Shown here: in pieces, positions 11 to 60,280 of the stretch | How positions within the stretch are numbered: position 1 is the stretch's first letter | Layout: each line of letters starts with the position of its first letter | NCBI GenBank assembly: GCA_016215325.1 | Contig: JACRJV010000026.1 | Location: 95,955-159,954 of the forward strand | DNA length: 64,000 nt | Source of the DNA: Candidatus Uhrbacteria bacterium | GTDB lineage: Bacteria > Patescibacteriota > Patescibacteriia > JACRJV01 | Direction of reading: 5' to 3' | The notes under the pieces: model-generated | Told to the model about the DNA's origin: nothing | Database searches by the model: none | The model's input: only the letters and a program-made list of their open reading frames with translations | Translations under genes and position numbers: made by a program

Positions 11-424
11 TTACGGGCGTGTCACGGTCACGCTTAATCCTTCGCTCGCCTGTTTATACGATCCCCGCGCGCTGATCGTCATCGAAGCGGTTTTGGCAGG
101 ATTCGTCCTATCTGGTGTGTACTGGAACTGACGTTTGCACGTTGCTCCATTTTGGAAATTAGCAATATCTTGATCCGAAAACCCTGCAGCAGACAAATCA
201 GTAGATCCCCCGAGCACCACATACTGTCGCAAACTCTGCTCGAGGCATGACTCTGCCGCATAAAACGCGGGGATCGAATCCGTCAAGAATCGCGTCGTCT
301 TATTGGCATTGGTTGCAAGAATGCTTAACGCGAGCGATGAACTCATCAACAGCGAAAGCAGGATTACAGCGTACACAAGAATGCTGCCGCGTTTATGTGT
401 CCGAAAAGAAGAATAAATGGTCAT
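11..424 (-). CDS. PilX-like minor pilin / pseudopilin; N-terminal motif RGSILVYAVILLSLLM followed by a hydrophobic helix. Probable start is the internal Met at 424.
   Basis: The ORF 11..556 contains a PilX_N-like segment (HKRGSILVYAVILLSLLMSSSLALSILA) and lies directly downstream of two prepilin genes on the same strand. Confidence 0.4.
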   Translation of the reverse strand: MTIYSSFRTHKRGSILVYAVILLSLLMSSSLALSILATNANKTTRFLTDSIPAFYAAESCLEQSLRQYVVLGGSTDLSAAGFSDQDIANFQNGATCKRQFQYTPDRTNPAKTASMTISARGSYKQASEGLSVTVTRP

Positions 425-4785: not shown

Positions 4786-6774
<1,989 letters not shown>

Positions 6775-7275
6775 CTATTCTTGCTTATCCCTATCTTGTT
6801 CGGATTGATAAATAACGACTCTCGCTGGCCGCAGCACCCGCCCTTGTATCCGATACCCCTTGGCCACGACGCGCGCGATCTTCTGGTCCTGTTCCCTCTG
6901 CCCGGGCTCGTGCTCCACTGCTTCGTGCAATGACGGATCAAATACCTCACCAATCTGCCCATACGACTCCACCGCGTGGCGTTTGAGCAAATCTTCCAGC
7001 TCCCGACGGATGTGCGTAATTCCTTGGAGCCACCCCCCAGTCTCCGGTGGTACATGGGCGATCGCCTGATCAAAGTGGTCGACCACGGGCAATAAATCGT
7101 GCACCATCATGCTCACGGACCATGCGGCCAATTCTTTCTGCGCGGTTTCCGTTTCTCGTTTGAGATTCTGATAATCGGCCAGCGCCCGCTTCCAACCGGC
7201 TTCAAATTCTTTCATTTTGCGTTCGCATTCAGCATGGCTTGTATCATTAGCTTGTAGTGTATTCTCATCACTCAT
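6775..7275 (-). CDS. grpE: Nucleotide exchange factor GrpE
   Basis: It lies between hrcA and dnaK; coiled-coil N-terminus followed by a GrpE-like C-terminus (…HAVESYGQIGEVFDPSLHEAV…). Confidence 0.8.
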   Translation of the reverse strand: MSDENTLQANDTSHAECERKMKEFEAGWKRALADYQNLKRETETAQKELAAWSVSMMVHDLLPVVDHFDQAIAHVPPETGGWLQGITHIRRELEDLLKRHAVESYGQIGEVFDPSLHEAVEHEPGQREQDQKIARVVAKGYRIQGRVLRPARVVIYQSEQDRDKQE

Positions 7276-23980: not shown

Positions 23981-24931
23981 TTATACGTGTTCGGCGGCCC
24001 GCAATCGTGCACTGCGCGAGGTGGGGTACTGGCGGAGTTCTTCGGTCGAAGGAGTAATAGATCTTGCCGTTAACAATTTGACGGTCGCCGAGGTACCGCA
24101 AATGCAAATCGGCGCCTCGGGCGGGCAAACGCAGGACTTCGCTAACATCCGCAGCGTCTGTTTTACAATCCGATCTTCGAGCGAATGATACGAAATAATC
24201 ACAATCCGGCCGTTTGGGTTCAGGACATCCACCCACACCTTGATGGCACGCTGGATAATGGCCAGCTCATCATTGACCGCAATCCGAAGGGCTTGGAGCA
24301 CCAGTGTCATCGGATTGTGGCGGCGATGCGCTCGCACAAGAGGGACAACAAGGAACTCTAACTCGCCAACAGTGGTCAGCGGCGATACGCCGCGATACTG
24401 GACGATAGTGCGTGCAAGCTGTTTTGCAGATGGCACTTCTCCATATTCGCGCAACCAGCGTTCGATCTCTTGCGCACTCTTGTCGCGTAAGAGGTCTGCA
24501 GCGGTCGGGATGGCGGCGCTCGGATCAAATCGCAGATCCAACGGGGCGGAGGCGTAGCGGAAACTCATCCCGCGTCTGGGATCTTCGAGGTGCTGGATCG
24601 CCACTCCCAGATCGAGCAGCACTCCATCGACGTGGGTTTTACCGGCAGCCCCGAGAATCTCTGCCACGTGGTCATAAGAGTTATGGACAAGCATGACACA
24701 ACTCTTCCAGGCAGCAAGGGTTTCCGCGGCAGCCAGCAGCTGCTGCGGATCTCGATCGACGCCGATGAGCATCCCATCATGACCAGCGCAAATGACTTCT
24801 GCAATGCGTTTGGCATGCCCTCCGGATCCGACAGTACCATCGACCACTGTCTGACCGGGAGCGCACGCTAAGTATTGAATAGCTTCATTCGCGAGGACGG
24901 GATGATGGCTCAAAAAAATTCCAATTTCCAA
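23981..24931 (-). CDS. rsmH: 16S rRNA (cytosine1402-N4)-methyltransferase RsmH / MraW
   Basis: VDGTVGSGGHA…, DLGVA-type SAM-binding motifs; gene adjacent to mraZ. Confidence 0.85.
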   Translation of the reverse strand: MEIGIFLSHHPVLANEAIQYLACAPGQTVVDGTVGSGGHAKRIAEVICAGHDGMLIGVDRDPQQLLAAAETLAAWKSCVMLVHNSYDHVAEILGAAGKTHVDGVLLDLGVAIQHLEDPRRGMSFRYASAPLDLRFDPSAAIPTAADLLRDKSAQEIERWLREYGEVPSAKQLARTIVQYRGVSPLTTVGELEFLVVPLVRAHRRHNPMTLVLQALRIAVNDELAIIQRAIKVWVDVLNPNGRIVIISYHSLEDRIVKQTLRMLAKSCVCPPEAPICICGTSATVKLLTARSITPSTEELRQYPTSRSARLRAAEHV

Positions 24932-25004
24932 TTTCCAATTTCCAATGAGCGATCGGCATCGATATTGAAAATTGAAAATTGAAAATTCATTGTAAATTGA
25001 AAAT
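24918..25004. repeat. mraZ-rsmH intergenic palindrome: (TTCCAAT)x4 on the left arm, (GAAAATT)n on the right
   Basis: attccaatttccaatttccaatttccaat … gaaaattgaaaattgaaaattcattgtaaattgaaaattt. Confidence 0.7.
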
Positions 25005-25469
25005 TTATACTCCCAGTTCTCTCATCTGCTCGGCAATATCCACACTATTGGTTTCTGCCTGGAGCTTGTACTGCTCCCACGCCTCCTCATCCCATAATTC
25101 GATCCGAGAATACAAACCGGCGACAACCACCTGCTTATTCAACTTTGCGTATTGGCGGAGGTATTCGGGCAATACGATCCGACCATTACCATCGAGCTCC
25201 GCGTCCATAGCGCCGCCGAACATGAGCCGAGCGAATGCCCGCGGATTGGATTGGGATATCGGCAGCGCGGAGAGCTTTTCTGCCAACTGCTTCCAGGAGT
25301 CTGCGGGGAACAAAAAAAGACACTGGTCAATTCCGCGAGTAACAACAGCGCCTTTCTTGAATTGTGCTTGATATTTTTTGGGGATGGCAAGCCGCCCCTT
25401 ATCGTCCAATGTGTGGTGGTATTCTCCGATGAAGATTGCCATACGTGAATGAACAGGACTTATCCCCAC
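25005..25469 (-). CDS. mraZ: Transcriptional regulator MraZ
   Basis: MFLGEYHHTLDDKGRLAIP motif duplicated (…GAMDAELDGNGRIVLP…). Confidence 0.9.
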   Translation of the reverse strand: MGISPVHSRMAIFIGEYHHTLDDKGRLAIPKKYQAQFKKGAVVTRGIDQCLFLFPADSWKQLAEKLSALPISQSNPRAFARLMFGGAMDAELDGNGRIVLPEYLRQYAKLNKQVVVAGLYSRIELWDEEAWEQYKLQAETNSVDIAEQMRELGV

Positions 25470-28915: not shown

Positions 28916-28992
28916 GAGTGAATCCCGCTTAGCCAGTGAATCCCGCCGGCCAGCTACTGGCTCACCGGATTTACTGGATTTACTGGATTTAC
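28916..28992. repeat. rplJ-rplL intergenic palindrome: (AGTGAATCCCGC)x2 on the left arm, (GGATTTACT)x3 on the right
   Basis: gagtgaatcccgcttagccagtgaatcccgcc … ggatttactggatttactggatttact. Confidence 0.65.
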
Positions 28993-29514
28993 TTATTTCT
29001 TAGAATTTCCAATCGCGTCAATAACACTGACGAGTTGTCGAATATTGGCATTGAGCGCTCCCACCACGCCGGAAATCGGCGCATTGAGTAACCCAACCAA
29101 TTGGCCGCGCAGTTGTTGTTTTGTCGGCAGCGTACTCACCGCTGTGACCTCTTCCGCAGTAATCCATCGCCCCTCGAAGATTCCCCCGAGCGGGTTGATC
29201 ACCTCATTTTTCTTGCGGAAGGTCATCAAGACCTTTGCGGGTGCGACTTCGTCGCCATATCCCAGCAACAGACTGATGCTCCCGGCTAAGCTGCGGGCCG
29301 ACACGGTCCAACCCGTGTCCTTCACCGCCACGTCAAGCAAAGTTTTCTTGACCGAGACATATTCAGCCTGTTCTGCTTCCAGTTGTTTGCGCAGCTCCTG
29401 GCTCTGAGCAACGCTCATCGCGTTGTAGCTTGCAACCACAACAGACTTGGCACGGCCCAAATGATCCTTGAGCCCGGCAACGATTTCTTCTTTTCGACTT
29501 CGTGTTTTTGCCAT
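28993..29514 (-). CDS. rplJ: 50S ribosomal protein L10
   Basis: [19 protein letters not shown]…[21 protein letters not shown]. Confidence 0.85.
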
Positions 29515-32160: not shown

Positions 32161-32201
32161 AATTTGGACATCAAAAATTTTATTGGGAATTGGGAATTAG
32201 A
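32143..32201. repeat. Weak member of the heptamer-palindrome family (…ctaattatcaaaat … attgggaattgggaattag)
   Basis: Read from the sequence. Confidence 0.4.
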
Positions 32202-32937
32202 TATTATGTTTCCGTATAATAATATTTTTTGCTGCTTGATACCTCTCTATCGTCTTCTTCCACCATGGCAAATATTTAAAGGGGGCGTGATACGCGAATG
32301 AGGGAACCCACTGGCTCATGGTCCCGCCGGTGGCTATGGTGTAGAGTACTTCCGGGATGAATACCCCCCTGCCGCCGCGCTCGGCAATTGTTAAAAAGAG
32401 GTCCCAGTCCTGGAATTTCTTGAGGCTCTCGTCAAACCGCGGGAAGGCACCGCGGCGCAGTAAAGAGCTAGTATGAATGTAGTTCAATTGGCGCAATGTT
32501 GCAAGATCAAAGGGGAATGAACTAAACTTCTTATGACTAAAAAGGAATTGGCTGTAGCTGAATGCCGCGTCCGGGTGTTGCTCGAGCGCTTCCCACATTT
32601 TTTCAAGACAATCCGGCTCCAGACGAATATCGGCATCACAAAAAAAGAGAAGGTCACCATTGCAAGCATCAAACCCGCGATTGCGCGCAGCGGCTGCTCC
32701 CCTATTTTGTTGATCAATCCATTGTATGGAGAATCCCTTACGTTGTAGTAAATCTGCAATCTGCAATCTGCAATCTGCAATCGTATCCGTCGATCCATCA
32801 TTGACAATAATAATCTCAGTTTCTATTCTAATGTTTTTAAGAACATTAGAATAGATAGATTGTTCAAGAATACTCTCGACACAGGCTTCGAGTTCTTTGG
32901 CGTGATTATATACCGGGATGATGATCGAAACTAGCAT
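32197..32937 (-). CDS. Family 2 glycosyltransferase
   Basis: MLVSIIIPVYN…; IIVNDGSTD; …FCDAD. Confidence 0.8.
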   Translation of the reverse strand: MLVSIIIPVYNHAKELEACVESILEQSIYSNVLKNIRIETEIIIVNDGSTDTIADCRLQIADLLQRKGFSIQWIDQQNRGAAAARNRGFDACNGDLLFFCDADIRLEPDCLEKMWEALEQHPDAAFSYSQFLFSHKKFSSFPFDLATLRQLNYIHTSSLLRRGAFPRFDESLKKFQDWDLFLTIAERGGRGVFIPEVLYTIATGGTMSQWVPSFAYHAPFKYLPWWKKTIERYQAAKNIIIRKHNI

Positions 32938-37415: not shown

Positions 37416-37588
37416 TAATAATGTTAACTGACCCCATCCATACGCCCTTGCATGATAGGCACGTCATCGGATACATGGAGGGAGTCGCTTTCACAGGGGC
37501 TTTTTCTGTTGTAGAATATCAGCACCACCCAAAGGGTAGCAAACACCAACAAAAACAGTAATCAAGCGTTTGAGAATGTTGGCATGTA

Positions 37589-41248: not shown

Positions 41249-41851
41249 TTATGAATTGTTTGGAATCCTAGGGTTAACCTTAGGATTCTTTTTGTACAGC
41301 CGCTCCAGCAGCGCATCAACTCCTTGCTTTGTTTTGGTGGAAAAAGGAATAATCTCTGCCTCAGGAATTTCGTTTTGAAGGGCGCTCAATTGCCACTGGA
41401 CCGGTTTAAGCTTATCAATTTTATTGGCAATAACAACAAAGGGTATTCCCCCCGCAGTCAAAACTTGGATCATCTCGCGATCAAAACCGGTGAGCCCCAC
41501 CACGCTATCGATGGCCAGGGCCACTGTCAACGACTCGACTCCCGACCGCGTCAGATACCAAAGGATCATCTTTCGAATTTTTTCACGCTCGTCATGACTG
41601 GTGCGCGCATACCCATAGCCCGGTAAATCTACAAAATAAAATTCGTTGTTGATCAAATAAAAATTAATCTCCGTGGTCTTTCCGGGTTTTTTCCCCACGC
41701 GCGCCAACTCATTCTGGAGCGTCAACGCATTGAGGAGGCTGGATTTGCCCACGTTGGATCGCCCCACAAAAGCAATCTGCTTGCGACCATCCGTCACAAT
41801 ATCATCTGTCCCCCGAATTCCTTTAATAAACCTCGCAGATCGTATCATCAT
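41249..41851 (-). CDS. engB: Ribosome-biogenesis GTPase EngB (YsxC/YihA)
   Basis: IAFVGRSNVGKSSLLNALT (G1); DLPGYGY (G3); NKIDK (G4). Confidence 0.85.
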   Translation of the reverse strand: MMIRSARFIKGIRGTDDIVTDGRKQIAFVGRSNVGKSSLLNALTLQNELARVGKKPGKTTEINFYLINNEFYFVDLPGYGYARTSHDEREKIRKMILWYLTRSGVESLTVALAIDSVVGLTGFDREMIQVLTAGGIPFVVIANKIDKLKPVQWQLSALQNEIPEAEIIPFSTKTKQGVDALLERLYKKNPKVNPRIPNNS

Positions 41852-42417
41852 ACATCCCCGTCCTTCACCAACCCAATATCCTTAAAAAAAATTTTGATGG
41901 TCTCTCCTTCGCTGCAGTCCGCAGACGGATGTTGAAATATTTCAAAGTGGAGATGTGGCAGAAACCCATATCCGGTTCTGCCGCTATATCCAATGAGTTC
42001 GCCTTCAACCACACGTTGCCCAACATGAACCAATACTCCTTGTGGTTTAAAATGCTCATACGCGCTGTACTCATCATGATCGTGCCGAATCACCACGCGA
42101 TTGCCTTGGAGCCAATATTTTTTTGCGACCCCTCCGTAGAGTCCATCATTTTTTACCCAAACGACAAGGCCGGATGCTGCGGCTACAATCGGCGTGCCCG
42201 TTGGTACCATGATATCAATCGCATGACGCACGGTACCCGAGTGCGCCCCAGCCACCCAATCTTCAATCAACCATAATAATTTTCTCCAACGTTTTGGACC
42301 GAGACGTGATAGGTCCAAGGGCAACCGATAGTCATTTTTAGATTGCATACCCCAACACCATAGCACGATCAGAAAACTTAATATACCCCTCGATAGGCAG
42401 AAAACGTACCGACACAC
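41848..42417 (-). CDS. M23 family metallopeptidase (LytM domain) with an N-terminal signal-like segment
   Basis: HxxxD…HLHFE pattern: …VVIRHDHDEYSAYEHF…GYSGRTGYGFLPHLHFEI. Confidence 0.75.
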   Translation of the reverse strand: MCRYVFCLSRGILSFLIVLWCWGMQSKNDYRLPLDLSRLGPKRWRKLLWLIEDWVAGAHSGTVRHAIDIMVPTGTPIVAAASGLVVWVKNDGLYGGVAKKYWLQGNRVVIRHDHDEYSAYEHFKPQGVLVHVGQRVVEGELIGYSGRTGYGFLPHLHFEIFQHPSADCSEGETIKIFFKDIGLVKDGDV

Positions 42418-42452
42418 TCATTCTCACATTCTCAAGTTTGTAAGGGTGTTTG
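42415..42452. repeat. Copy 1 of the conserved 31-nt element cattctcacattctcaagtttgtaagg(g/a)tgt
   Basis: Direct repeat occurring at 42415, 43393 and 43759. Confidence 0.75.
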
Positions 42453-42453
42453 T

Positions 42454-43383
42454 CTAGTACCGGAACTCACTACTGTTAAAGCGCCATCCGCGCCCTTCTT
42501 CGATCTGTTTTTGCTCATCGGGCTTTAATACGGTCAACAAGAAATGTTCATCAAAAATGTGCCACACAAACTGATAGCCTGAATCCTTGATCAACTCATT
42601 TAACTCTCGGAATGGCTTGGCGGTCCACCACCGCTCATAGGGATGTGGAAAATGGATGACAAGAGGCCGTCCATTCCAGCGGAATCGAACGGGGATCCAC
42701 TTTTGCTCATTCTCATAATCTTTCTCCGGGTCACCCGACAACGTCGCGCGCCACAATTCTTCCCGGCGCTCCCATTCTTCACCAGACACCGATTCCCACC
42801 GATGCTCATGTTCGGAATAATCGATATCCGTTGGCGTAAATACTCCCCGCGAGATGCTTCCCCACTGCTCGAGAAATTTTTTATACGAATCTTTGTCGGT
42901 ATTCTCTGAGATATGTTCGGTGCTGAATACCCAAACGCGTGTCGTATCGCACTGCAACAAAAGAATATCTTCTCCGGGATATTCCGGATCGAAGCCAGTG
43001 CATGGGTCCTGCGGAAGAAACACACTCTGAAGCGCATCCTTGCCCTCGTTTCGAATACGAATGATTTCTTGTGTAACGTCTTGGTCGCTCATTGCGGACT
43101 TACCGGCAAAATCAAAGAATCCGAATGATCCATAAAATCGAGTCGATTCAAGAAGCCACTGCTCGGGCGATAACATCTCCAGATATTTACGATTGCGCCT
43201 CATCGTTCTTTTTACTTTTCGATCGGGAGAAAACCGATCGTAGAGGAAAATGACAATGGCCAGTTTGACAACCAATCCAATTGTTTTATATGGATCGACC
43301 ACTCCGTTATCAATCATCCCCAATACAGTCAGTATGACGTCAAAAAGATACACTAGGATAACAAAGGAGATGAAACGCGTCAT
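42454..43383 (-). CDS. Hypothetical membrane protein (two N-terminal TM helices plus a large acidic domain)
   Basis: Start trimmed to MTRFISFV because the ORF-track start lies inside the conserved 31-nt element. Confidence 0.45.
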   Translation of the reverse strand: MTRFISFVILVYLFDVILTVLGMIDNGVVDPYKTIGLVVKLAIVIFLYDRFSPDRKVKRTMRRNRKYLEMLSPEQWLLESTRFYGSFGFFDFAGKSAMSDQDVTQEIIRIRNEGKDALQSVFLPQDPCTGFDPEYPGEDILLLQCDTTRVWVFSTEHISENTDKDSYKKFLEQWGSISRGVFTPTDIDYSEHEHRWESVSGEEWERREELWRATLSGDPEKDYENEQKWIPVRFRWNGRPLVIHFPHPYERWWTAKPFRELNELIKDSGYQFVWHIFDEHFLLTVLKPDEQKQIEEGRGWRFNSSEFRY

Positions 43384-43392
43384 ATTGACAAA

Positions 43393-43430
43393 ACTCATTC
43401 TCACATTCTCAAGTTTGTAAGGATGTTGTT
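43393..43430. repeat. Copy 2 of the conserved 31-nt element
   Basis: actcattctcacattctcaagtttgtaaggatgttgtt. Confidence 0.75.
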
Positions 43431-43713
43431 AGTTCCGCTGGAACGACTTCAAGAATCGGACAAGTGTTTTGCCGTACGGGGAGAGCGTATGCTCAACAAA
43501 CTTCCCGCGATATTTCTTGTCAATCAGTCCTGCAGTAAACAAACGGCGCGTATGTTCCCCGATCGTTTTCGTATTTGCCCCGACCTCATCGACAATGTCG
43601 AATAACGTCATGGGCCCGCGCTGTGCAACGAGCAGCAAGATCTCAATGCGATAATGATTGGCGACCCCCTTGAGGTGGCGCTCCATCTGTTTGGCGGTTT
43701 TAACTTTTTGCAT
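43429..43713 (-). CDS. ArsR/SmtB-family winged-helix transcriptional regulator
   Basis: HYRIEILLLVAQRGPMTLFDIVDEVGANTKTIGEHTRRLFTAGLI (HTH plus wing). Confidence 0.65.
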   Translation of the reverse strand: MQKVKTAKQMERHLKGVANHYRIEILLLVAQRGPMTLFDIVDEVGANTKTIGEHTRRLFTAGLIDKKYRGKFVEHTLSPYGKTLVRFLKSFQRN

Positions 43714-43747
43714 ACACAAAACAATTACCCATCGTCGAGATAACGGG

Positions 43748-43776
43748 AGTATATCAAAACATTCTCACATTCTCAA
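43748..43776 (-). promoter_or_regulatory. Putative sigma-70-type promoter of the ArsR gene: -35 TTGAGA (inside the 31-nt element), 17-nt spacer, -10 TATACT
   Basis: Minus strand reads TTGAGAATGTGAGAATGTTTTGATATACT; spacing counted directly. Confidence 0.35.
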
Positions 43777-43794
43777 GTTTGTAAGGATGTCAGG
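43759..43794. repeat. Copy 3 of the conserved 31-nt element
   Basis: acattctcacattctcaagtttgtaaggatgtcagg. Confidence 0.75.
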
Positions 43795-43927
43795 ACTCAA
43801 TCCGCTTTGTAGTTGACCGAAGAAATGTGGATCATCCACCTCTGCTGACGCTGTGGCGAGAACATTCTTTCGTCGTATCAAAAACACCCCCACAGAAAGG
43901 GGTGTTTAGTGTTTTTGATCCCCGGGC

Positions 43928-44542
43928 TTAGCGTTTGGAGAATTGTGGCGCTCGGCGCGCTCCCTTGAGTCCTGGCTTCTTTCGTTCACGACGGCGCGGA
44001 TCGCGCGTGAGATACCCACTCTTTTTAAGAGCCTTTCGGAATACAGGGTTGAGCTCGAGCATGAGTCGCGAGATTCCATGGCGTACCGCCTCGGCCTGGC
44101 CCATCGTGCCACCGCCGCTGACCTTGCAAGTAATCTCGTGCCGCTCCCATTGGCCGACCGCTTTCAGCGGCGAGCTTACCATCAGTTGCAATACTTCGGT
44201 CGGAAAATATTCTTCCCAGGGTCGGCCATTCACCGTAATCGACGCGCTCTTCCCACCCCGCTGCAACCGCACCCGCGCCACGGAAGTCTTCCGGCGTCCC
44301 ACGGCTTCAATATACGTACCGCGGTTAGCGACTTGGACGGCGCGAACTTCCGATTCAATCGGTGCCGGCACTAATGATGGTTCTTCTGTTTCTTTCTTCA
44401 CAGCAGTTTTGCGCGGGCTGGTTTTGCGGACAGCGTCTGATTTTGCCGTAGCTGATTTACGCGACGCCCTTCGTGGCTTGGCTGGTTCAGTCTGTTCCGA
44501 TTGTACGGGAGTCGTTGTGGCAGTCGGTTCTGGCATAATCAA
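43928..44542 (-). CDS. rpsI: 30S ribosomal protein S9 with a Lys/Ala/Thr-rich N-terminal extension of about 70 aa
   Basis: …GRRKTSVARVRL…GGGTMGQAEAVRHGISRLMLE…RDPRRRERKKPGLKGARRAPQFSKR. Confidence 0.85.
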   Translation of the reverse strand: MIMPEPTATTTPVQSEQTEPAKPRRASRKSATAKSDAVRKTSPRKTAVKKETEEPSLVPAPIESEVRAVQVANRGTYIEAVGRRKTSVARVRLQRGGKSASITVNGRPWEEYFPTEVLQLMVSSPLKAVGQWERHEITCKVSGGGTMGQAEAVRHGISRLMLELNPVFRKALKKSGYLTRDPRRRERKKPGLKGARRAPQFSKR

Positions 44543-46697: not shown

Positions 46698-46789
46698 AAT
46701 TTTCAATTTTCAGTTTACAATTTTCAATTCAGTCGCATGTTTGAAAATTGTGTCTTGAAAATTCATTGGAAATTGATAATTGAAAATTT
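46698..46789. repeat. rpsK-rpsD intergenic palindrome of (AATTTTC)n and (GAAAATT)n arms
   Basis: aattttcaattttcagtttacaattttcaatt … ttgaaaattgtgtcttgaaaattcattggaaattgataattgaaaattt. Confidence 0.7.
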
Positions 46790-46797
46790 ACTATATA

Positions 46798-47286
46798 CTA
46801 TACTCGACGTACTTTGGGCGGTCTCGGCCCATTATGCGGCAATGGAGTAATGTCCTTGATCGATAATACCTCGAGACCATTGGCATTGAGCGCCCGCACG
46901 GCAGCTTCCCTGCCTGCTCCGACACCTTTCACGAACACTTCCACCTCTTTGAGCCCCGATCCTTCGATACGGCTCACTGCATCGCGCACCACGATCCCTG
47001 CGGCATAGGACGTCGACTTCTTGGGTCCCCGGAAGCCCACCTTCCCAGACGAAGACCACGATAAGACGTTGCCTTGCGGATCAGTAAACGTGATGATGGT
47101 ATTATTGTACGTTGCCTGGACATAAGCGCGTCCACGCGGCACCATCCGGACCAACTTTTTCTTTTTTCTACGATCTTTCGAGGGTTTTTTTTCTGCCCCT
47201 TCAGACTTCACAACATCCGTAGCAAGACTTGCGTCTAGGGCCGCTTCTTCTGTTGCTGGAAGTATTGTTTGATCATCCATTGCCAT
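46798..47286 (-). CDS. rpsK: 30S ribosomal protein S11 with an N-terminal extension
   Basis: …AYVQATYNNTIITFTDPQGNVLSWSSSGKVGFRGPKKSTSYAA…. Confidence 0.85.
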   Translation of the reverse strand: MAMDDQTILPATEEAALDASLATDVVKSEGAEKKPSKDRRKKKKLVRMVPRGRAYVQATYNNTIITFTDPQGNVLSWSSSGKVGFRGPKKSTSYAAGIVVRDAVSRIEGSGLKEVEVFVKGVGAGREAAVRALNANGLEVLSIKDITPLPHNGPRPPKVRRV

Positions 47287-47708: not shown

Positions 47709-47789
47709 AATTTCAGATTTTAGATTGTAGATTGATGATTCTAGAGCGTATGCGATTATTCTGCAATCTGAAATCTAAAATCTGCAATG
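47709..47789. repeat. rpsM-rpmJ intergenic palindrome of (CAGATTT/TAGATTG)n arms
   Basis: aatttcagattttagattgtagattgatgattctag … attctgcaatctgaaatctaaaatctgcaatg. Confidence 0.7.
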
Positions 47790-50494: not shown

Positions 50495-51685
50495 TTAACG
50501 TTCCACCATTTCAATAATCCCCCCTCCCAGCAGTTCAAGCCCTTCCGCAGTGTCCTGGTAGAATACCACGCTTTGGCCGGACGTCAAAGCCCGCTCCGGC
50601 TGATCGAACGTGCAGATGATCGTCTGCGCACTGGCCCCTGGAACTCCCGCCTCAGCGGGGCCCCGCCCTGGCGGTGACTGGCCCCTGGAACCTGAAACCA
50701 CGGCTGTCGCGCCCGGGTGCCGATACCGCGGCTTAGCAATCACCCGAATCGGCTCTGGTGGAGGTTGACCGCTCAACCAGTTCACTTTTGATAAAATAAC
50801 AGTCCGCGCAAAAAGCGTCTTATCTTCTGCACCGATCGAAACCACCAGAGTATTTGTTACATAATCTTTTTGTGCCACATAATACGGCCCGCCGCCGCCC
50901 AGCCCCAACCCCTCGCGCTGGCCAATCGTATAAAATGCGAGCCCGCGATGCCGGCCGATTTCCTCGCCCGTTGTGGTCACAACCACTCCTTCAGATTGCT
51001 GCCGGATTCGCGATTGTAAAAACTCTTGGACATTGTTTTTAATAAAACACACCTCTTGGCTTTCCTTTTTGAGCGCCACGGGCAACTCCATCTCTTGCGC
51101 CAATGTCCGCACCTGCGGCTTGGCGAACTCGCCAATCGGGAATAGGAGGCGCTTGAGCTTTTCTTGCGTCAAGGTATACAAAAAATACGACTGATCTTTG
51201 TGGGGGTCTTGGGCGACAAACAATCGTTGCCGAAATTGGGAATTGGGAATTGGGAATTGAAAATTTCGTACATAGTGCCCGGTGGCAAAATAAATACTCT
51301 CTTTCTCTGCTTCTGCCGCTTCAGAAAGGATCCTGTCAATCAGCTCAAACTTAATCGTTCGATTGCACTCCACGCAAGGGTTCGGGGTGAGCCCAGACTC
51401 ATATCCAACCAAAAATGGTTTCACCACGTTCTGACGAAATTGTTCTCGTAGATCCATCACCGTCAACGGGATGCCAAGGTGGTCGCACACGCGTTGGGCA
51501 TCATTCATGGCATCCAAATTGCAGCAATTGGTAAAATCCTTTCCACCCGGCACAAGGCCATCCACATCCCCCCAGTAGCGCATAAAAACTCCGCGTACCT
51601 CAAAACCGCGCTGCCCAAGCAGCGCGGCGGCGACCGAGGAATCAACTCCGCCGGACATCGCGACGTAGACTATTGTTCTATCCAC
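50495..51685 (-). CDS. mnmA: tRNA-specific 2-thiouridylase MnmA (carries an in-frame copy of the heptamer repeat)
   Basis: PP-loop VAMSGGVDSSVAA; …KDQSYFLYTL…; C-terminal GQSVVFYQD…GGGII. Confidence 0.85.
   Translation of the reverse strand: MDRTIVYVAMSGGVDSSVAAALLGQRGFEVRGVFMRYWGDVDGLVPGGKDFTNCCNLDAMNDAQRVCDHLGIPLTVMDLREQFRQNVVKPFLVGYESGLTPNPCVECNRTIKFELIDRILSEAAEAEKESIYFATGHYVRNFQFPIPNSQFRQRLFVAQDPHKDQSYFLYTLTQEKLKRLLFPIGEFAKPQVRTLAQEMELPVALKKESQEVCFIKNNVQEFLQSRIRQQSEGVVVTTTGEEIGRHRGLAFYTIGQREGLGLGGGGPYYVAQKDYVTNTLVVSIGAEDKTLFARTVILSKVNWLSGQPPPEPIRVIAKPRYRHPGATAVVSGSRGQSPPGRGPAEAGVPGASAQTIICTFDQPERALTSGQSVVFYQDTAEGLELLGGGIIEMVER
51231..51268. repeat. Intragenic copy of the (AATTGGG)n heptamer element, in-frame in mnmA (encodes NFQFPIPNSQFR)
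   Basis: cgaaattgggaattgggaattgggaattgaaaatttcg with palindromic ends cgaaatt/aatttcg. Confidence 0.65.
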
Positions 51686-53904: not shown

Positions 53905-53975
53905 TGAATTCCCAATTCCTAATCTCTAATACCCAATGAAATGGCGGGTATTGGAAATTGGAAATTGGAAATTGG
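53905..53975. repeat. Palindrome of (CCCAATT/CTAAT)n and (ATTGGAA)x3 arms between the ATPase gene and its membrane partner
   Basis: gaattcccaattcctaatctctaatacccaatg … cgggtattggaaattggaaattggaaattt. Confidence 0.7.
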
Positions 53976-53979
53976 AAAT

Positions 53980-55401
53980 TTACGCTACCGGAAGGTCTCC
54001 CGGCACTCCATCTTGCTCGTGCGCTGGCTCTTGTGCCGGTGTACGGAAGGGGGCGTGTTTCACGCCGGTAGACTCGCGCGAAATCCGCGAACCGGCATAC
54101 CGCTCCGAGACCGGCAACGCAAATGGCGGCTCGGCCTGCTTGGTGAGGGCCTTACTAATCAGCGGCGCCTTTACCGTTGCCACTGGGAAGTGGTAGAGCG
54201 TTGCGAGCTCTTCGATGTTGAGCACTTTACCCTCACCTTCTCCAGCCTCATCCTCGCGCAAATGAAACGCATGCATAAGCTTTCGTTGTTTGCTCGCAAT
54301 CCGTTCCTTCACAAAATAATATTTTGCGGCCGTCGTCACCTTCCCGCTCGGGCTCAACCCATTCATGTGTTGGGTGCTAAACTGGCGCATGGCACCCAAA
54401 ATCGGTACCACCCCCCGCGCTTTGTTAAAGACTTCTTTTTTGGCGATATACACAAATCGCATTTTGGTAAAATACCCGATCTTCGCCATTTTGAGCTGCA
54501 CCCCCTCTAACACCGCGCGTTCGCCCGGCGTTAAATATTGCACTTTATTGGGAGCCTCGTCTCCCCCGCCATGCTCACCACCGCCTTCACCCGGTGGGAA
54601 TATAAACGAAAGCAAAAATTCAAAGAGCTTAACTGGGTACCCCAATAACGTTGTGATAAAGGGTGGCGCGTGCTCACGATGCGCCCCAATCATCTCGTCG
54701 ACGATGTGCTGGGCGTGCTCTTTCCACCCATCCCCGGTCGGCTGCACGACATACTGGAGCCAAATATGCTCATCAGGTCCCAGTTTGCTCATACTCTCGA
54801 GCATTCCCGCTAAGGGGTCTTTGAGCTCTTGGCTCATGGTGTGTTCAAATTCGGGATAGGTGCGCAACGGGTAAGCTTCGTGCTTCGTAAGAATAAATTC
54901 CGTGCCCCACATGTCCCACTCCGGGTTGGGGAATTTATGCGGGAAGTGATGCGTGTAGTCTTCCACTTCGATAATCTCGGCATCCGGATACTGCGAAAAA
55001 AATGCGGCTTCGATAAGATCACGGAATGCCGTGTTGGTCCATACAAAAAATCGAATATATCCGCCGCTGGAAACAATCTCAAAGCTAAACCGCTCTTGCG
55101 TTTTGCCCAGCCACCATTTTTCGTAGAAATCTGCTCCCGAAAGCGCGCCATGCACTTGAGCAAAAATTTGTTCGACAGCTTTGGGGCTTTGTTCATTCAG
55201 TTTCGGGATATTAATCGCCAATAGCAGGAATGAACGCTGATGTTCAAAGTGATGTCGGACGCGCTTGAGCCACACGAGCTGTGAAATTTTGATACCCCCC
55301 CAGACAACAATAATCCACCCGCCGTGGGTAATGATGTACCACAAGAGGGAAAAAAATGAGAGATTCGCGAAATTCGCAAAGAAATCAAGGTTCAATACCA
55401 T
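53980..55401 (-). CDS. Hypothetical membrane protein co-oriented with, and 5' of, the VirD4-like ATPase
   Basis: N-terminal TM pair (FFSLLWYIITHGGWIIVVWGGI…); large soluble domain with a Gly-rich acidic loop GEGGGEHGGGDE. Confidence 0.45.
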   Translation of the reverse strand: MVLNLDFFANFANLSFFSLLWYIITHGGWIIVVWGGIKISQLVWLKRVRHHFEHQRSFLLLAINIPKLNEQSPKAVEQIFAQVHGALSGADFYEKWWLGKTQERFSFEIVSSGGYIRFFVWTNTAFRDLIEAAFFSQYPDAEIIEVEDYTHHFPHKFPNPEWDMWGTEFILTKHEAYPLRTYPEFEHTMSQELKDPLAGMLESMSKLGPDEHIWLQYVVQPTGDGWKEHAQHIVDEMIGAHREHAPPFITTLLGYPVKLFEFLLSFIFPPGEGGGEHGGGDEAPNKVQYLTPGERAVLEGVQLKMAKIGYFTKMRFVYIAKKEVFNKARGVVPILGAMRQFSTQHMNGLSPSGKVTTAAKYYFVKERIASKQRKLMHAFHLREDEAGEGEGKVLNIEELATLYHFPVATVKAPLISKALTKQAEPPFALPVSERYAGSRISRESTGVKHAPFRTPAQEPAHEQDGVPGDLPVA

Positions 55402-58346: not shown

Positions 58347-60280
58347 TGTTTCACGAAATTACCAAGCGGGCGATTGAGCAGGCGCTGGAGCACCCGCGCA
58401 CCATCAACAAGGATCTTGTTGATGCGCAACAAGCGCGGCGCGTGCTCGATCGGCTCGTCGGGTACGAACTTTCGCCATTCTTATGGCGCAAAGTGGCCCG
58501 CGGGCTATCGGCCGGACGCGTGCAATCAGCGGCGCTGCGGCTGATTGTCGAGCGAGAAGAAGAACGCGAGCAATTCAAGCAACAAGAATACTGGACCATC
58601 GAGGCCGAAATGCAATCAGCATCCGGATCATTCCATGCTGTGCTCACGCACCTTGATAACACTCTGCTATCAAAGTTCGCAATCCCTTCTCAGCAGCGCG
58701 CCGATGAAATTTTGAGTGCCATTGCCCACGGCAAGAGCACCATTGACAAGATCGAAAACAAATCTGCCCGCCGCACGCCCCCGCCGCCGTTCACCACCTC
58801 AACACTCCAACAAGAAGCCAACCGTCGCCTTGGGTACTCGGCAAAACAGACCATGCGCCTCGCCCAACAACTCTACGAAGGAATCGATTTGGGAGCAGAA
58901 GGGCACGCAGGCCTTATCACCTACATGCGTACTGATTCGGTCAACCTCTCGCAAGATTTTCTCGCTGAAGCCAAAGAAGCGATCCAACAACAATTTGGCC
59001 CAACGTACTGGCAGAGCTCGCGCGCATTCACCACAAAATCAAAACTTGCCCAAGAAGCGCACGAGGCAATCCGACCGTCCATGGCTCATCGATCGCCAGA
59101 ACTCGTGAAACCATTCCTTGATCCGCAACAATGGAGACTCTATGACCTGATTTGGCGGCGAGCGGTGGCAAGCCAAATGGCTTTGGCCGAAGTGGATCAA
59201 ACCACCGTGGCAATCCGCACCATCGCCAAACAGCACGCCCAATGGCATGCCAGCGGTGCGGTGATCCGTTTTGACGGTTGGCTTCGTTTGTACCCCACGA
59301 ATACCAAGGAGGGAGAATTGCCAGCACTTTCGGAAGGCGCGCCCGTCACACCAAATCCGATCACACCAGTCCAACATTTTACCCAAGCGCCCGCACGCTA
59401 TAGTGATGCAACTCTCGTCAAGGCTTTGGAAGAGCACGGGATTGGCCGCCCATCCACATATGCCCCGACCATTTCAACGGTCGTTGACCGTAATTACGTT
59501 GAGCGCGACGATGACAAGCGCTTGAAGCCCACGGACATGGGCCGACTCGTCACAAAGGTACTCAAAGAACACTTCCCGAATATTGTCGATCTTGCCTTTA
59601 CCGCAACCATGGAAGATGACCTCGATGCGGTGGCGGAAGGCAAAAAGAAATGGCAGCCGCTCATTGCATCATTCTATACGCCGTTCCACGAAAATCTCCT
59701 CGCAAAAGAAGATGTTGTTTCCAAGAAAGAATTAACCGAAGAACACAGCGACGAGCTGTGCCCCAAGTGCGGCAAGCCCATGCTCATCAAGATCGGACGA
59801 TTTGGGAAATTCTATGCCTGTAGCGGTTACCCCGAATGCAAAAGTACCAAACCCCTTGCCACGGAGGCGGCGGAAACCGGGGCCGCAGCGGCCTCGTCCG
59901 AACCAGCGCCCGATTGCCCCGAATGCGGCAAACCCATGGGGCTGAAACGCGGGCGCTTTGGTTCCTTCTGGGGCTGCACGGGGTACCCCGAATGCAAGGG
60001 CATCAAACGCATTGAGCGTTCCACGGGCATTGTCTGCCCAAAATGCGGGAAGGGTGAAATTGTCGCTCGCCGAAGCAAACGTGGCAAAACATTCTACGGG
60101 TGCAACACGTATCCAGATTGCGACTTTGTACTCTGGAGCAAACCCGTCGTGGATCCAGAAACCAAACAGGCAAAACTTTGCCCAAAGTGCAAATCCTTTC
60201 TGGTATTCGGAGCAAAAAATACAATTCGGTGTTCGAATAAGGAATGTGGGTACAGCGAGGAATCGACGATGGCGGAATAA
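58277..60280 (+). CDS. topA: DNA topoisomerase I, main body with four C-terminal zinc ribbons (+2 frame relative to the N-terminal fragment)
   Basis: [16 protein letters not shown]…[20 protein letters not shown]…[16 protein letters not shown]…; four CPxCG…C zinc ribbons. Confidence 0.8.

Follow-up and report, generated by a model that had tools for sequence, protein, structure and literature searches.

The window analysed here, 64,000 nt of contig JACRJV010000026.1 of a Candidatus Uhrbacteria bacterium (assembly GCA_016215325.1, positions 95,955 to 159,954), contains a 31-nt repeat, CATTCTCACATTCTCAAGTTTGTAAGGRTGT, that accompanies three consecutive minus-strand genes encoding a small winged helix-turn-helix (wHTH) protein, a 309-aa membrane protein and an M23 peptidase. 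Three exact copies were found on the plus strand (42419-42449, 43396-43426 and 43760-43790), against 0.00 matches expected in shuffled sequence, and the repeat is therefore not due to chance. An earlier interpretation made from the letters alone (the sequence-only reading) had recognized the three copies, with start coordinates that were 1-4 nt off. When up to three mismatches were allowed, no fourth match appeared within the window, and a repeat search extended the family to 35 nt (42416-42450, 43393-43427 and 43757-43791). Read in the direction of the three genes, which are all on the minus strand, the sequence of the element is ACAYCCTTACAAACTTGAGAATGTGAGAATG. The copies, hereafter O1, O2 and O3 (Table 1), are spaced by 364 bp (O1-O2) and 977 bp (O2-O3), each interval corresponding to one whole gene. 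A CRISPR array was considered and rejected, since spacings of 977 and 364 nt, each with a whole gene, are not the regular 25-50-nt spacers of such arrays. A profile of the element family, searched against the window, recovered only the three copies and one half-length relic, which differs at two positions from the right half of a common variant (0.01 matches expected).

The gene assignments of the sequence-only reading were confirmed: the product of 43429-43713 matches HTH_5/ArsR (Pfam, E 1.8e-6), the peptidase matches Peptidase_M23 (Pfam, E 5.5e-20), and for the 309-aa protein no Pfam or NCBIfam family was found. One homologue of the latter was detected in a different genomic context, with an N-terminus conserved between the two; its AlphaFold2 model is unusable (predicted local distance difference test, pLDDT, 48). 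The M23 gene, which had been given a start at 42417, most likely starts at 42348 (166 aa), the position called in an identical contig (L107; the loci fetched for comparison carry L numbers) and in a close relative, and O3, the lowest-coordinate copy, therefore lies 71 nt upstream of the M23 start codon. Each copy had also been thought to fill exactly the gap ahead of its gene; this nearly holds for O2 (2 nt past the wHTH stop codon and about 11-13 nt ahead of the start codon of the 309-aa gene) and does not hold for the other copies.

Table 1. Features at the repeat locus, in window coordinates
Feature	Position	Strand	Remarks
O1, putative 32-bp operator copy 5' of the wHTH gene	43759..43790	-	gene strand ACATCCTTACAAACTTGAGAATGTGAGAATGT; nhmmer E 1e-12
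-35 hexamer TTGAGA, made by the O1 centre	43771..43776	-	promoter scan; same geometry in 30/35 orthologous loci
-10 hexamer TATACT, TG-extended, 17 nt past the -35	43748..43753	-	promoter scan
wHTH regulator (putative), 94 aa, ArsR/SmtB fold	43429..43713	-	Pfam, AlphaFold2, Foldseek; recognition helix starts N-T-K-T-I-G-E-H-T-R-R-L
O2, putative operator copy	43395..43426	-	ACATCCTTACAAACTTGAGAATGTGAGAATGA; without -10 box; O2 at the stop codon kept in 39 loci
309-aa protein gene, two N-terminal transmembrane helices	42454..43383	-	no family; single homologue found
O3, putative operator copy	42418..42449	-	ACACCCTTACAAACTTGAGAATGTGAGAATGA; 4 nt past the stop of the 309-aa gene
M23 gene's own -10 box TATATT	42380..42385	-	aligns with TATAAT of a relative without operator there
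M23 peptidase, 166 aa	41848..42348	-	stop overlaps the start of EngB (41249-41851)
rpsI terminator hairpin	43882..43907	-	upstream edge of the putatively inserted 1.5-kb module
Half-operator relic TTTGAGAATGTTGGCATGT	37569..37587	+	15 nt upstream of a membrane-protein start codon (37602)

Alignment of the copies shows that the 31-nt repeat is the core of a 32-bp near-palindrome of 15-2-15 design, ACATCCTTACAAACT-TG-AGAATGTAAGGATGT, which is usually lengthened by A-Y-A on the left and by T-R-T on the right. The 32-bp site can be read as four octamers, the first two in one direction and the last two in the other (family consensus ACATCCTT ACAAACTT / GAGAATGT AAGGATGT). The sole systematic asymmetry is found at the centre, ACAAACT on the left against ACATTCT (as reverse complement) on the right, and it is this asymmetry that creates the hexamer TTGAGA. 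The internal tandem octamer CATTCTCA x2, to which the sequence-only reading had given a key role, is present in the window copies; it is, however, a variant right arm of the palindrome, with TGTGAGAATG replacing TGTAAGGATG, and the same variant occurs in L017, L042, L076 and L095. The arm is usually TGTAAGGATGT across the family, the mirror of the left arm, and a direct-repeat binding site was rejected for this reason.

The distribution of the element was obtained by scanning one genome per bacterial and archaeal species for its 19-nt core, CCTTACAAACTTGAGAATG, for which about 4 chance matches were estimated from the size of the collection. The core is present in 115 copies in 101 stretches, from about 75 species genomes of Patescibacteria (the candidate phyla radiation, CPR). 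All core-bearing records are Patescibacteria/CPR or have placeholder names, except one evident chance match (L013). Among the carriers are Doudnabacteria and, in the Parcubacteria group, Harrison-, Taylor-, Sungii-, Nealson-, Kaiser-, Lipton-, Taga-, Azam-, Nomura- and Portnoybacteria. Exact-core copies number at most about 8 in any one representative genome; copies inside one genome share the variant of that genome, and close relatives differ. The sequence-only reading had named many further copies at unrelated positions as the mark of a generic repeat: the window has three copies, and across genomes the copies do adjoin unrelated genes, at low copy number. In a viral collection a single match was found, on a contig of 40.7 kb with a match to a CPR protein cluster, and an origin from phages or plasmids was rejected on this basis. 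In one locus (L009, 6768-6835) the centre of the O2 copy is split by an insertion of about 35 nt, ACATCCTTACAAACTTG[cttcgcccttccgaagccttgcgcgaaggagg]GAGAATGTAAGGATG.

The element is closely linked to the wHTH gene. About 42 orthologues of the window protein are present in the fetched loci (70-85% identical to it), and every one of them has one element upstream and a second at or overlapping the stop codon, as in the window. In the same loci, distant paralogues have palindromes of their own on either side, built to the same plan but differing in sequence (ACATTCCAACATTCTGCAGAATGTTGGAATGT in L060/L065, ACATTCTCACATTCTTAAGAATGTGAGAATGT in L064, TACTGTCTAATTCGTGAGAATTAGACAGTA in L086 and TGTTCTTAAGTTCTTGAGAACA in L044; also ATATTCCGACATTCTTGAGAATGTCGGAATAT). 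Moreover, residue x in N-x-K-T-I-G-E-H-T-R-R-L, at the start of the recognition helix, varies together with base 5 of the outer arm (ACAT[N]C). Proteins that have Glu or Gln at x go with C or A in 118 of 120 arms, and for those that have Val, Thr, Leu or Phe the base is T in 26 of 32 arms (Fisher 2e-21, on counts that are not phylogenetically independent). Counted by gene, two or more T arms were found in 0/32 cases with Glu/Gln and in 8/8 with Val/Thr/Leu/Phe (1.3e-8; these counts, too, are not phylogenetically independent). The window protein has Thr at this position (residue 48) and each window operator has one CATCC and one CATTC arm; the protein of the closest relative has Gln, and its arms have C or A. 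The pairing would be chemically sensible: a carboxylate or amide would face the amino group of the C or A base, and hydrophobic side chains the methyl group of thymine. Because of the operator-gene-operator synteny in about 42 loci, the paralogue-specific palindromes and the co-variation of residue and base, the element is very probably the operator of the adjacent ArsR-like protein. The regulator together with its two flanking putative operators is a conserved unit in many CPR lineages.

Several loci showed particular features of this unit. In L027, a tandem (CGTATAA)n lies between the wHTH stop codon and O2 and brings the O1-O2 distance to 387 bp. In L084 and L085 (position 574), the wHTH copies are truncated or frameshifted while the upstream operator and TATAAT are intact; these are decaying units. 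A second palindrome family, TGTCTAATTCGTGAGAATTAGACA, flanks the distant ArsR-like paralogue in L086 (minus strand, 412-721 in reverse-complement coordinates), and half of it, tgtctaattcgta, also adjoins elements of the main type in other loci (L009, L039, L089). It seems that several regulator/palindrome systems coexist and cluster.

The position of O1 relative to the promoter of the wHTH gene gives a further indication of its function. As the sequence-only reading had noticed, a TTGAGA-17-TATACT motif lies 5' of the regulator gene; with 10 of 12 matches and a TG extension, it is the only good sigma-70-like site in 41700-44000. Family-wide, copies 5' of wHTH genes show TTGAGA-16..18-TAnnnT in 30 of 35 cases (a perfect TATAAT in 18), and the -10 box is usually 6 nt before the ATG, so close that a leaderless mRNA is implied. 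The window gene differs from most orthologues in this respect, as it has a leader of about 28 nt (43714-43747, compared with about 6 nt from -10 to ATG), within which a small hairpin with a T run behind it (CCCGTTATCTCGACGATGGG TAATTGTTTT) was flagged by the terminator scan. O1 overlaps a real-looking promoter, and this implies autoregulation. The 94-aa protein would bind the 32-bp palindrome as a dimer or a pair of dimers, comparable to SmtB/CzrA on their 12-2-12 sites. From the promoter geometry we infer that at O1 it would cover about -50 to -19 of the wHTH promoter, occluding the -35 hexamer and the spacer and so repressing the strong promoter of its own gene. The proposal of the sequence-only reading that the element is an operator of the ArsR-like protein is very probable in view of synteny, paralogue palindromes and co-variation, which give it much more weight than the letters alone could. 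As a whole, the evidence makes it probable that the element is the cognate operator of a hitherto undescribed CPR autorepressor family to which the adjacent wHTH protein belongs.

O2 and O3 lack a -10 box at proper spacing (GTCAAT, 3/6, and TCGGTA, 1/6), and the promoter scan finds O1 only. It is very improbable that each copy is a full promoter-plus-operator cassette that drives the next gene in a three-promoter regulon, as the sequence-only reading had supposed. All copies do have TTGAGA co-oriented with the next gene, and CPR promoters are unmapped, so that non-canonical -10 elements might exist, but a correctly spaced -10 is found with the regulator's own copy alone, and family-wide TAnnnT follows only 11% of the copies that are not 5' of a wHTH gene. 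Furthermore, the conserved N-terminus of the 309-aa gene begins 13 nt past O2, and a transcript from the TTGAGA of O2 would therefore begin inside the coding sequence. In the alignment, the M23 -10 box corresponds to TATAAT in a relative that is without the element at this place and in which the ancestral -10 works nonetheless; the window gene has apparently kept this box as its own, with the O3 centre about 62 nt upstream of where M23 transcription is predicted to start. O1 is accordingly a putative operator laid over a promoter, and O2 and O3 are putative operators without promoters. The latter would be accessory operators of one transcription unit starting at O1; they may strengthen repression through cooperative binding or looping, restrict read-through into the 309-aa gene and M23-EngB by acting as roadblocks, or both.

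A palindrome at gene ends might also act as an RNA hairpin that terminates, processes or stabilises mRNAs. Typical copies fold at about -12 kcal/mol (the consensus at -17), many of them lie 0-5 nt past a co-directional stop codon, and T runs follow some. We nevertheless regard this explanation as quite improbable: the copies in the window have weak folds (-4 to -8 kcal/mol, z -0.7 to -2.0), a U-tract follows just 29 of 151 copies (7 of 39 O2 copies), both strands fold about equally, no covariation was seen past the conserved arms, and the conservation, including the 10-nt centre, far exceeds what a stem needs. In addition, O1 lies upstream of its own transcription start, and the copies were not flagged by the terminator scan. 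An intrinsic terminator in particular was rejected because of the weak folds, the few U tracts and the result of that scan. Rfam searches at E values of up to 10 found no family matching the element or its surroundings.

The protein itself has the fold expected of an ArsR-type regulator. In the AlphaFold2 model (pLDDT 83) the secondary structure, H7-15, H19-32, H37-44, H48-60, E64-69, E72-77 and H79-93, has the ArsR/SmtB topology, and AlphaFold2 and Foldseek together show the winged-helix order alpha1-alpha2-alpha3-alphaR-beta1-beta2-alpha5. The best solved structures in Foldseek are SqrR, CadC, SmtB, HlyU, BigR and CzrA, with TM-scores of about 0.7. At the sequence level the resemblance to characterised ArsR members is weak: Pfam HTH_5 scores 28.2 bits (above the gathering score of 22), NCBIfam HTH_metalloreg 33.9 bits (below the cut-off of 55), and the best match in the PDB is ArsR 6j0e (E 5e-4). 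The family is large, with at least 2157 clusters at 90% identity past E 1e-5 (the top 120 all 74-83% identical) and 79 clusters at 50% identity past E 1e-10, and its members are named in databases just "winged helix-turn-helix" or "ArsR family".

ArsR/SmtB autorepressors such as SmtB, CzrA, CadC, SqrR/BigR and HlyU use 12-2-12 imperfect inverted-repeat operators in negative autoregulation, and the system described here resembles them in several respects, i.e., a small winged-helix protein (about 95-120 aa) of the same fold with a match to Pfam HTH_5, a long imperfect palindrome with a 2-bp centre over the regulator's own promoter, and the negative autoregulation to be expected from this. It differs in that the site is 15-2-15 with four 8-bp sub-repeats, a second copy is always present at the stop codon of the gene, metal or persulfide sensing residues are absent and the NCBIfam score is under the family cut-off, no resistance or efflux gene is linked, and the putative operator is conserved almost to the base over many CPR lineages.

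A number of observations weigh against an autorepressor with its operators. None of the known ArsR/SmtB sensing sites (the alpha3/alpha3N Cys motif, alpha5 Asp/His/Glu, the persulfide Cys pair) was found in the window wHTH sequence, which has no cysteine and whose C-terminal helix, SPYGKTLVRFLKSFQ, is without Asp, His and Glu; the invariant H13, H20, H54 and H75 are candidate sensing residues. Outside the position 5' of wHTH genes, TAnnnT was found with 13 of 118 copies and not with the other 105 (background 4.3%), and the asymmetric centre is co-oriented with the flanking genes even where no promoter is evident (downstream 71 vs 25, upstream 75 vs 15). In 9 of 39 loci O2 is followed by a convergent gene; O2 is therefore not simply the operator of its downstream neighbour and belongs to the regulator's own unit. 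Genes downstream of copies are functionally unrelated (TspO x4, NYN x4, HsdS x2, GT4 x2, PolA, GrpE, BipA, L7/L12, MnmA, TatD, ExoIII and others), and a coherent regulon was rejected, as Pfam and PADLOC on 77 downstream genes, together with neighbour clustering, gave heterogeneous functions; PADLOC showed no enrichment of defence functions among the genes downstream of copies. Finally, two ArsR-like centromere-binding proteins, AspA (5k5q) and TubR (3m8e), also score well in Foldseek.

The last of these points might indicate an architectural or centromere-like protein of the AspA/TubR type, with the palindromes as loading sites for chromosome organisation or segregation. AspA and TubR are among the top Foldseek matches, the sites are dispersed at low density beside unrelated genes, and the wHTH protein has no obvious ligand site. 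By analogy, the likeness to AspA (of pNOB8) and TubR would extend to a wHTH protein of about 90 aa with an ArsR-like fold and a palindrome upstream of its own operon. However, no partner NTPase (ParA, TubZ, ParM) adjoins any unit, nor is there an adaptor gene next to it, the sites are dispersed on the chromosome and do not cluster into an array, the geometry of O1 is that of a promoter operator, and the GC skew gives no origin or terminus near the site, so that we find this possibility hardly credible. An association with an origin or terminus was rejected also in general, the GC skew being uniformly negative over the window.

Comparison with a close relative bears on how the unit came to its present place. 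In this relative (L104-L106, EngB 89% identical) the gene order is rpsI, terminator, M23, EngB, glutaredoxin, flippase, O1-wHTH-O2 and an unrelated 314-aa protein, i.e., M23 directly follows rpsI with no element between them and the wHTH unit is elsewhere. In the window, the rpsI terminator and the M23 -10 box are separated by about 1.5 kb comprising O1-wHTH-O2-309aa-O3. Since the close relative has rpsI-M23 without the element and its wHTH unit at another place, the comparison shows that the window contains a relocated 1.5-kb module, O1-wHTH-O2-309-aa gene-O3, of which the 309-aa gene is cargo. The sequence-only reading had seen a small regulon in the three genes; a conserved regulon could not be upheld, M23 being without the element in the closest relative and the regulator there lying beside an unrelated gene. 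Its suggestion of mobility has indirect support: the module is relocated with respect to the relative, but target-site duplications were not found. In general, flank-versus-flank local alignment gave a mean of 6.85 against 6.25 for mismatched-pair controls, with only the SEC-C subset described below standing out, and no transposase gene was found adjoining wHTH units across loci.

These data could be explained by a small selfish or mobile module, operator-wHTH-operator, whose palindromes are its ends, comparable to those of repetitive extragenic palindromes and their associated transposases (REP/RAYT) or to terminal inverted repeats, with solo copies as footprints and any regulation secondary. 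The unit is found in non-orthologous contexts with mostly non-recurrent neighbours, at a different place and with different cargo even in the relative just mentioned; paralogous units each have their own flanking palindromes, as in families of insertion sequences; decayed wHTH copies exist (L084, L085); eight solo copies have SEC-C-tail coding sequence on both sides; and in L102 four copies lie within larger repeats. Nevertheless, we think this explanation unlikely. Pfam and NCBIfam gave no transposase, recombinase or HUH/Y1 domain, the sole gene being that of a 94-aa DNA-binding protein; flank duplication is absent in general; the copy number is low (three and one relic in 64 kb); and the element is not phage-borne, with one match in the viral collection. 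Moreover, O1 is precisely integrated with the promoter, the co-variation of residue and base is that of ordinary operator recognition, the compared genomes carry other rearrangements too, and no clean insertion junction was obtained. The similarity to REP/RAYT systems (REPtrons) lies in the short dispersed intergenic palindromes and in a single associated gene that is itself flanked by copies; here, in contrast, the gene encodes a wHTH protein and not a Y1/HUH transposase (Pfam and NCBIfam give HTH families only), there is a handful of copies per genome instead of tens to hundreds, and the upstream copy is integrated in the promoter. In a more far-reaching version, the operator-wHTH-operator unit would be a self-contained relocatable module that moves between loci with cargo genes, seeds solo sites and has no recognisable transposase, as a REPtron-like or addiction-like selfish element peculiar to CPR in which each paralogous protein co-evolves with its own palindrome; this is rather unlikely. 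An integron attC/cassette array was set aside solely because the element is conserved in sequence, unlike attC, and the first "cassette" has its own promoter (an integrase was not searched for).

Two sets of loci with unusual flanks were noted. At eight unrelated loci (L028, L029, L032, L052, L058, L073, L097 and L100), the coding sequence for the tail of a SEC-C motif (GKKYKKCHGQ*) is found on both sides of the element, intact or decayed, e.g., in L100, where ...CPCGSGKKYKKCHGQ* precedes the element and GKKHKKCHGK* follows it. Either about 30 nt seem to have been duplicated, or recombination seems to have taken place at the conserved end of a gene. In L102 (4200-5350), four copies (4258, 4775, 5108 and 5245) are embedded in repeats of about 130 nt with common flanks (...ttagaaacaaatattatgcgcaac..., ...attggtggatgtagatgtgaggggaaaaatagggtcaactctgttttt), and a larger unit is duplicated around the wHTH gene.

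Small repressors with palindromic sites that stay nearly the same over very large phylogenetic distances are known from HrcA-CIRCE and from the NrdR boxes, which have defined, conserved targets (chaperones and ribonucleotide reductases, respectively). On the basis of this established knowledge, the predicted CPR operator resembles them in the near-constancy of the site over distance, and it differs in that the only conserved target is the regulator's own gene, the others varying between genomes. A full-text literature search for the element sequence returned nothing relevant, and in the literature on CPR/ArsR/operator and on Patescibacteria regulons no description of the regulator-operator pair was found; the pair of regulator and site appears not to have been described previously. 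What is new in comparison with ArsR/SmtB autorepressors is the four-octamer 15-2-15 site, the invariant stop-codon operator, the near-identity across CPR and the variable context. An invariant operator-gene-operator layout in a variable context is unusual for an ArsR-type regulator, and it raises the question of how the units move.

CPR bacteria have tiny genomes with few transcription factors, and to our knowledge almost nothing has been established experimentally about their regulation. A predicted regulator/operator pair for which thousands of protein clusters exist in CPR (at least 2157 at an identity of 90%) could offer a handle on it. The near-consensus sigma-70 promoter and the mostly leaderless mRNA would constitute a concrete model of a CPR promoter, and the correspondence between residue 48 (Glu/Gln vs hydrophobic) and base 5 (C/A vs T) a small recognition code. 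The pair could also supply orthogonal repressor/operator parts for CPR genetic tools or synthetic biology.

Some features of the window are separate from the element. Inverted arrays built from tandem units of 7-9 nt, namely (AATTTCC)n...(GGAAATT)n, (TCTGCAA)n and (ACTGGATTT)n, were found in intergenic DNA at 1116-1188, 1827-1967, 24915-25005, 32182-32205, 46698-46806, 51229-51283 and 53907-53998, also at 32739-32781 and 47710-47788, and also at 6695-6791 and 28957-29010. They lie between co-directional genes and share with the operator the design of mirrored direct repeats, but they are a separate family. On minus-strand RNA they form long hairpins, AU-rich and 24-30 bp in length, with folding energies of -22 to -48 kcal/mol (z -4.2 to -6.8 in four of the five tested), and they may be terminators or sites for other proteins. 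Ribosomal protein S9, encoded at 43928-44542, is extended at its N-terminus by about 80 residues with a high content of Lys, Pro, Thr, Ala and Glu, before the Pfam S9 domain (82-204). At 59759-60014, within an open reading frame of 667 aa, two 100-nt direct repeats (70% identity) code for Cys-rich units (CPKCGKPM...CSGYPECK), which look like tandem zinc-ribbon modules as found in the C-termini of topoisomerases.

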